Shown: one piece after another, positions 1-378 of the stretch | How the letters are laid out: each line of letters opens with the position of its first letter | Position numbering within the stretch: position 1 is the stretch's first letter | NCBI RefSeq assembly: GCF_003334305.1 | Contig: NZ_QOWS01000081.1 | Source: Escherichia coli | Lineage (GTDB): Bacteria > Pseudomonadota > Gammaproteobacteria > Enterobacterales > Enterobacteriaceae | Length of the DNA stretch: 378 bases | Direction: 5' to 3' (one strand) | Made by a program: the position numbers and the translations under genes | Notes under the pieces: model-generated | The model's input: only the letters and a program-made list of their open reading frames with translations | Database searches by the model: none | What the model was told of the DNA's origin: nothing

Positions 1-378
1 CGCCTCCCCCGGCAGCAGCGGCTCAAAGTGAATGCTCCGCCCGCCGTTGTCGTTGAGTACCAGTGCATCATCGCGTAGCTGTAAGCGGATATCAGAAGGC
101 GCTTTCCAGCCGGGGCCAAACACTCCCACCGGCGCGGGTGTCCTGGTCCGGTAGCTGCTGTAGGTGCGGGAGAGAATGAACGGCAGCGGGCCGGGCAGCG
201 CAAGGTCCGTCTCGCCGGGCAGCACCTTCGCCCCCAGCAGCGGATTTACCGGGTTGCCCGAAGTCATCCCGCCCGGACACACCGAGCACGCCACGCCGGT
301 GGGCGCGCCAATTCTTACACCTGCCGAACCCTGGACAATGGGACCGCCATACTGAGTCATATCTCCCTGACGCGCCGC
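1..378 (-). CDS. rhs: Rhs-family polymorphic toxin protein, N-terminal portion (PAAR-like domain plus linker); partial at both ends, true start just beyond position 378, gene continues beyond position 1
   Basis: Seen in sequence: the reverse complement read in phase from position 378 gives 126 sense codons and no stop. The translation begins AARQGDMTQYGGPIVQGSAGVRIGAPTGVACSVCPGG, which from memory matches the conserved N-terminus of E. coli-type Rhs proteins (MSGKPAARQGDMTQYGG...), followed by the Pro/Gly-rich stretch LPGETDLALPGPLPFILSRTYSSYRTRTPAPVGVFGPGWKAPSDIRLQLRDD. GC3 in this frame is about 73% by hand count, consistent with a genuine reading frame. The paralog (rhsA/B/C/D-like) cannot be resolved from 378 nt, so only a family-level symbol is given. 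Confidence 0.9.
220..378 (-). other. Region encoding a PAAR-like domain (PAAR_RHS type) at the N-terminus of the Rhs protein; boundaries approximate, and the first residues of the PAAR motif lie outside the window
   Basis: The translation shows the pattern (P)AARxGD...GGPIVQGSxxVRIGxPxxG...C-x-x-C, which resembles the PAARxGD / GSxxVxIGG signature of PAAR repeat proteins. Established knowledge: many Rhs proteins carry an N-terminal PAAR-like domain. The domain end was placed by eye, not by HMM. Confidence 0.55.

Follow-up and report, generated by a model that had tools for sequence, protein, structure and literature searches.

A 378-nt window of Escherichia coli DNA holds the 5′ end of an Rhs element core gene

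The 378-nt stretch of E. coli DNA analyzed here, which we call the window, raises the question of what gene it belongs to when the list of its open reading frames (ORFs) offers two short entries on opposite strands. A six-frame translation gives the first part of the answer. As an earlier note on this DNA had described, minus-strand frame 1, read from base 378 to base 1, is the sole stop-free frame and stays in phase with the window at either edge. It comprises 126 codons, and the remaining five frames contain two to five stops each. The peptide begins AARQGDMTQYGGPIVQGSAGVRIGAPTGVACSVCPGGMTSGNPVNPLLGAKVLPGE, and the full 126-aa translation is AARQGDMTQYGGPIVQGSAGVRIGAPTGVACSVCPGGMTSGNPVNPLLGAKVLPGETDLALPGPLPFILSRTYSSYRTRTPAPVGVFGPGWKAPSDIRLQLRDDALVLNDNGGRSIHFEPLLPGEA. 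The peptide quoted in that note matches this translation apart from the leading P of its "PAAR", which lies one codon beyond base 378 (CCA, just outside the window in identical loci); the window itself holds A-A-R. With a G+C content of 66% in the window, the frame has G+C values of 0.68, 0.56 and 0.73 at codon positions 1, 2 and 3, which are compatible with coding. A given frame nevertheless stays open in 4.7% of mononucleotide shuffles, or about one time in four over six frames, and on this figure we rejected open-frame statistics as sole proof of a gene. A 126-codon open frame at 66% G+C is unremarkable and by itself weak evidence of coding. At its default 60-aa threshold the ORF lister returns the same two out-of-frame ORFs (Table 1), reproducing the remark of the earlier note that such a track misses the real gene. 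The real frame is missing because the lister leaves out any ORF that crosses an end of the source, so that its absence is a mechanical artefact with no biological meaning. As a lesson of method, ORF lists that drop end-crossing ORFs will miss any gene that spans a short window.

Since the open frame alone is weak evidence, the identity of the gene was decided by homology. Compared with the NCBIfam model RHS_core (NF041261), the 126-aa peptide gives an E-value of 3.9e-81 and 273 bits, collinear with model positions 6–131 of 1261; the whole-protein cut-off of 2,000 bits is out of reach for a fragment that covers 10% of the model, and the full gene of E. coli C, whose locus is 100% identical to the window, scores 2,777 bits against that cut-off, over model positions 1–1261. 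Among 5,426 complete E. coli genomes searched by megablast, 3,872 contain a match to the window, with a median of three matching places per genome (range 1–8) and a best place at least 99% identical to the window in 1,174 records. The best 20 matches listed are all 100% identical to the window, and the annotations beneath them read RHS element core protein, RHS repeat-associated core domain-containing protein or rhsD. We conclude with high confidence that the window is the 5′ end (codons 6–131) of an RhsD/RhsE-subfamily core gene of an E. coli Rhs element, and that this gene lies on the minus strand and encodes a polymorphic toxin of about 1,400 aa. The earlier note had placed an Rhs N-terminus on this strand, and both the RHS_core match and the 100% identity to annotated rhs genes bear it out.

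The homology also bears on the two listed ORFs. Both do appear mechanically in the ORF list, and one of them could in principle be the real gene, or the window could hold a non-coding RNA, but we give these readings a near-negligible chance: ORFs of this kind are expected in DNA of 66% G+C, the homology is specific to minus frame 1, and among the matches listed rhs is the only annotated feature beneath the window match. An Rfam scan of both window strands at E ≤ 1 returned no family. The plus-strand and other out-of-frame ORFs were accordingly rejected as by-products of high G+C that have neither homology support nor annotation. What the window carries is a member of a textbook gene family that is already annotated and already known. 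Descriptions of Rhs elements in E. coli go back decades, thousands of genomes have this gene annotated, and a homologue with this N-terminal architecture has already been solved; the finding is an ordinary one within a known family, and its significance is slight. Across the complete E. coli genomes, 7 of the 10,546 matching places are plasmid-borne and the rest are chromosomal.

Table 1 Features of the 378-nt window, in window coordinates.
Feature	Position	Strand	Basis or remark
Rhs element core gene, codons 6–131, running off both window ends	1..378	minus	RHS_core match, 100% DNA identity
Leader residues 6–47, AARQGDMTQYGGPIVQGSAGVRIGAPTGVACSVCPGGMTSGN; one PAAR-like repeat and a CxxC-containing linker	253..378	minus	phmmer, likeness to Tse5
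Predicted autoproteolysis site N47/P48 (N47 253–255, P48 250–252)	250..255	minus	homology to Tse5
DUF6531 N-terminal plug, protein residues 46–123	25..258	minus	Pfam PF20148
Listed ORF	92..289	minus	65 aa, out of frame
Listed ORF	164..355	plus	63 aa, out of frame

Features beyond the window were read from the full-length gene at the identical locus in E. coli C, where the window corresponds to bases 9001–9378 inside a minus-strand coding sequence (5170–9393) of 1,407 aa; strain 720632 has the same layout. In identical loci the frame continues for 15 nt beyond base 378 (upstream) and for 3,831 nt beyond base 1 (downstream), which answers the check on ORF extent that the earlier note had proposed. 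The proteins WP_000014859.1 (E. coli C; named "rhs element protein RhsD" by PGAP) and WP_001547367.1 (720632) are 100% identical to the window at both the nucleotide and the amino acid level, so that the intact gene of this locus (residues 6–131 of 1,407) shows zero differences within it. The gene order at the identical loci is yncH, vgrG, rhs, ydcD, yncO, two ISAs1/H-rpt transposase genes and pptA, with one or both of the transposase genes degraded, depending on the strain. The arrangement from yncH through ISAs1 is present in four strains (E. coli C, 720632, AS19 and 203740), and this yncH–ydcD locus is the one known in K-12 as the "rhsE" locus. As looked for in a Tse5-type effector, the gene is linked to vgrG: of five inspected loci with an exact match, four have vgrG on the same strand 66 nt upstream, and its product matches TIGR03361 (NCBIfam, E 1.7e-184). 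On the other side, rhs and ydcD share 17 nt at the rhs stop, and YdcD matches NF050020 (NCBIfam, E 4.3e-64). This small downstream gene had been predicted in the earlier note, and it sits at the position expected of an immunity gene in identical loci. A scan for promoter and terminator consensus sequences upstream of vgrG–rhs gave no enrichment over shuffles.

Comparison with K-12 separates the window from each of the rhs genes of that strain. K-12 RhsD (b0497, NP_415030.1) shares 96.8% nucleotide identity with the window, with 12 mismatches and 123 of 126 residues the same, and it is 94% identical to the full protein over core residues 1–1326, in keeping with membership of the same RhsD/E subfamily (PMC2935791). 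Its surroundings are different: K-12 rhsD sits at ybbP–ybbC, is followed by ybbC rather than ydcD, has a different C-terminal tip and has no vgrG upstream. The K-12 rhsA, rhsB and rhsC genes are 80–81% identical to the window in nucleotides and share 108 of its 126 residues. Finally, K-12 rhsE is a pseudogene that lacks the window segment altogether. At its locus a 4,468-bp segment (E. coli C locus 7186–11653) is replaced by 18 bp (K-12 locus 7906–7923), and the segment absent from K-12 comprises vgrG and the first 2.2 kb of rhs, the whole window included; K-12 rhsE is thus a 5′-truncated pseudogene through loss of this segment. A K-12 copy was therefore ruled out as the window sequence, given the 12 mismatches of rhsD, the roughly 80% identity of rhsA, rhsB and rhsC, and the missing segment of rhsE. 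A point of nomenclature follows the same lines. PGAP calls the intact yncH–ydcD gene "rhsD", and judged by where it lies and by the ydcD next to it, this gene corresponds, in intact form, to the K-12 rhsE pseudogene; the PGAP name tracks core similarity, and neither the locus nor the toxin tip. K-12 also contains the ylbI pseudogene (K-12 rhsD locus 10498–10593), the remnant of an Rhs 5′ end (32 codons, ISGKPAARQGDMPQYGGPIVQGSAGVLIVAPT) located about 2 kb downstream of rhsD and 76% identical to window bases 299–378. The ylbI pseudogene is thus an orphan N-terminal fragment, unlike the usual orphan C-terminal tips.

An exact copy of all 378 nt is also found at the ybbP–rhs ("rhsD") locus of strain 2015C-3163 (locus bases 6001–6378), where the gene is frameshifted and truncated (annotated "frameshifted; incomplete") and has no vgrG beside it. 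Because exact copies occur at both rhsE-type and rhsD-type loci, the window is not assignable to one locus, and an attempt to place it at a single paralogous locus failed on this account. Identical 378-nt 5′ ends at the rhsD and rhsE loci of different strains are consistent with recombination or gene conversion that homogenizes Rhs cores. The copy in 2015C-3163, together with the K-12 rhsE pseudogene and the existence of short 5′ relics such as ylbI, raises the prospect that the sampled copy belongs to a defective Rhs element, a frameshifted or truncated pseudogene from which no functional effector is made. We consider this unlikely, since the vgrG-linked yncH–ydcD locus accounts for four of the five inspected loci with an exact match, and the window has no stop or frameshift across its 126 codons. 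Three of those four yncH–ydcD loci carry intact genes of about 1,405–1,407 aa, and the fourth is flagged as partial only through the start of its record. That fourth gene, from strain AS19-RrmA- (record bases 1–3774), is labeled "incomplete, missing C-terminus", which is an annotation artefact, as the start point chosen for the circular record falls within the gene and the coding sequence begins at base 1. The particular copy sampled may still be non-functional or not linked to VgrG, and the reading we prefer, and pursue below, is that the window opens an intact core gene.

The full protein of E. coli C has the anatomy of an Rhs core protein. Behind its N-terminal DUF6531 domain (Table 1), Pfam recognizes eight RHS repeats (PF05593) at E ≤ 0.001 and 15 at E ≤ 10. 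YD_repeat_2x (TIGR01643) matches in six stretches with an E-value of 5.7e-47, and Rhs_assc_core matches as well, so the RHS-repeat and Rhs core matches that had been predicted for the sequence beyond position 1 are indeed present. The core ends in an RHS domain (PF03527, E 4.2e-17), after which comes a C-terminal DUF6973. An aspartyl autoprotease motif, DPIG-x18-DPMG, occupies residues 1232–1257, with PxxxxDPxGL at 1249–1258. The protein resembles K-12 RhsD up to residue 1326, and RhsA, RhsB and RhsC up to about 1261–1290; these end points mark the variable C-terminal tip expected of the family. Composition changes along the gene, with 62–69% G+C in the Rhs core and 32–35% in the region of the tip and ydcD. 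A G+C-rich core followed by an A+T-rich part is the classical Rhs composite, and the rhsDE subfamily is recorded in the same work (PMC2935791). The gene therefore combines what defines an Rhs core protein, namely the RHS_core match, YD/RHS repeats, a core end followed by a variable tip, and a G+C-rich core with an A+T-rich extension accompanied by ISAs1. What this gene is, how its domains are arranged and which genes surround it are all direct observations.

Within the window, Pfam recognizes the DUF6531 plug. The window peptide matches PF20148 with an E-value of 5.2e-20 over window residues 41–118, covering the full model (1–74), and its best match among PDB sequences is the shell chain of Pseudomonas aeruginosa Tse5 (8cp6_B, E 9.8e-11), a protein from a study that also describes the N-terminal plug of the Rhs shell (PMC10684867). 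The 8cp6_B chain starts at P48 of Tse5 (PVNPMLGSKLLPEE), and its first residue aligns with the E. coli protein's own P48 (window residue 43; PVNPLLGAKVLPGE). The two proteins thus share a 47-residue leader and then a shell that begins P48-V-N-P-x-L-G, with residues 48–129 aligned. Self-cleavage of Tse5 at K47/P48 has been established experimentally and is abolished by the K47G-P48A substitution (PMC10684867). By analogy, we predict that N47/P48 is the N-terminal autoproteolysis site of the E. coli protein, separating the leader from a shell that starts PVNPLLG. The residue before the scissile bond, a putative bond in E. coli Rhs, is N47 there and K47 in Tse5, and residues tied to N-terminal cleavage in other Rhs studies are conserved in neither Tse5 nor RhsA (PMC10684867). 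Additionally, the literal P-A-A-R of the E. coli leader is reported to be lacking from that of Tse5 (PMC9637101), and the toxins are unlike, Tse5 being a pore-former and E. coli Rhs carrying a DUF6973 tip.

Other Rhs structures align with the plug region at much greater distances from their N-termini. Residues 238–304 of Pseudomonas protegens RhsA (7q97_A) align with the E. coli DUF6531 region at an E-value of 3e-4, and the core of Salmonella bongori Rhs (8qjb/8qjc) aligns weakly with it, at 0.13–0.48. The plug begins 240–360 residues into these chains, whereas in E. coli Rhs it comes after just 47 residues. RhsA, Rhs1 and TseI have N-terminal fragments of 25–45 kDa that contain predicted transmembrane regions (PMC10684867). 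Our reading of the literature found no experiment on secretion, cleavage or toxicity of this E. coli Rhs protein.

The short leader raises the question of whether it is a PAAR domain. The earlier note had expected a PAAR match in Pfam, and here the result went against it: PAAR_motif (PF05488) gives no match to the window peptide even at E ≤ 10, and against the full protein it gives a sub-threshold match (E 0.26) at residues 3–20. A literal P-A-A-R is nonetheless present at residues 5–8 of the full protein. When residues 1–57 were compared with PDB sequences by phmmer, PAAR proteins came out on top, each aligned through its last repeat with residues 2–29 (4jiv_D, residues 67–93, E 0.02; 9rce_c, 0.021; 4jiw_D, 0.63; 8gra_J, 1.8). 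In the canonical PAAR proteins VCA0105 of Vibrio cholerae (4jiv_D) and c1882 of E. coli (4jiw_D), it is this last repeat that aligns with residues 2–29 of E. coli Rhs (SGKPAARQGDMTQYGGPIVQGSAGVRIG). These canonical chains hold three repeats in 93 aa, whereas the E. coli Rhs leader has 47 aa and one recognizable repeat. Set against the features of the PF05488 domain, the leader thus has the P-A-A-R motif, and lacks the profile match and the three-repeat domain of about 90 aa. The idea that it is a canonical PAAR domain was rejected for these reasons, as there is no significant PF05488 match and one repeat only. The 47-aa N-terminal leader of Tse5 is described as a PAAR-like domain and is required for secretion (PMC10684867; PMC9637101). 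Judged on its sequence, the E. coli leader is PAAR-like in a weak, single-repeat sense and outside the canonical domain family, and the label is acceptable as it is used in the Tse5 literature.

The leader contains a CxxC motif (C-S-V-C, within ACSVCPGG) at residues 36–39, window bases 262–273 on the minus strand, placed after the PAAR-like repeat and ahead of the putative cleavage site. The motif is kept in K-12 RhsA, RhsB, RhsC and RhsD, and it is possible that it binds metal. By analogy with Tse5, the leader is presumably a VgrG-docking peptide. It is conceivable, although we hold it as a doubtful conjecture, that the leader is a minimal single-repeat PAAR element that docks on or caps VgrG in a manner unlike the three-repeat cone, either by complementing a C-terminal extension of VgrG or by oligomerizing, with the CxxC motif binding metal and the whole being freed by self-cleavage at N47/P48.

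Taken together with its neighbors, the gene suggests the following mode of action. The leader would dock the effector on its cognate VgrG spike, part of a type VI secretion system (T6SS), as proposed from the analogy with Tse5 and from the adjacent vgrG. A β-shell built of YD repeats would enclose the variable C-terminal toxin, here the DUF6973 tip, and the DUF6531 plug would close this shell at its N-terminal end, being joined to the leader at N47/P48, the position at which Tse5 cleaves itself. At the end of the core, the aspartyl autoprotease motif would release the toxin. The producer would be protected by YdcD, and ydcD is presumed from its position to be the immunity gene for the DUF6973 tip. 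Docking on VgrG, cleavage at the N-terminus, the activities of toxin and immunity protein and delivery by T6SS are all inferred from homologues and from the literature.

A different reading is that the Rhs protein acts independently of the T6SS, for example at the cell surface or in adhesion, or that the locus serves mainly as a substrate for recombination, in which case the leader would be no VgrG adaptor. The Rhs core is a repeat present one to eight times per genome, and a repeated core is the property behind the name "rearrangement hot spot". K-12 has four intact rhs genes (rhsA, rhsB, rhsC and rhsD) with the same N-terminus and no adjoining vgrG, the exact copy at the rhsD locus is likewise without an adjacent vgrG, and the PAAR match is sub-threshold. 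Furthermore, an in-silico study of RhsE from EHEC draws on weak structural matches to propose other roles, including an adhesin-like tip; the same study places EHEC rhsE downstream of a vgrG and groups it with rhsD (PMC7216683). Against this stand the same-strand vgrG just upstream of rhs at the locus with most of the inspected exact copies, and the intact toxin-release motif and overlapping small downstream gene. On balance we regard a T6SS-independent role as quite improbable and retain the reading of a VgrG-docked effector. At the far end of this locus, yncO (4604–4789, plus strand, in the E. coli C locus) overlaps the 3′ end of ydcD (4704–5186, minus strand) on the opposite strand, and the overlap is present in every rhsE-type locus that shows that stretch.
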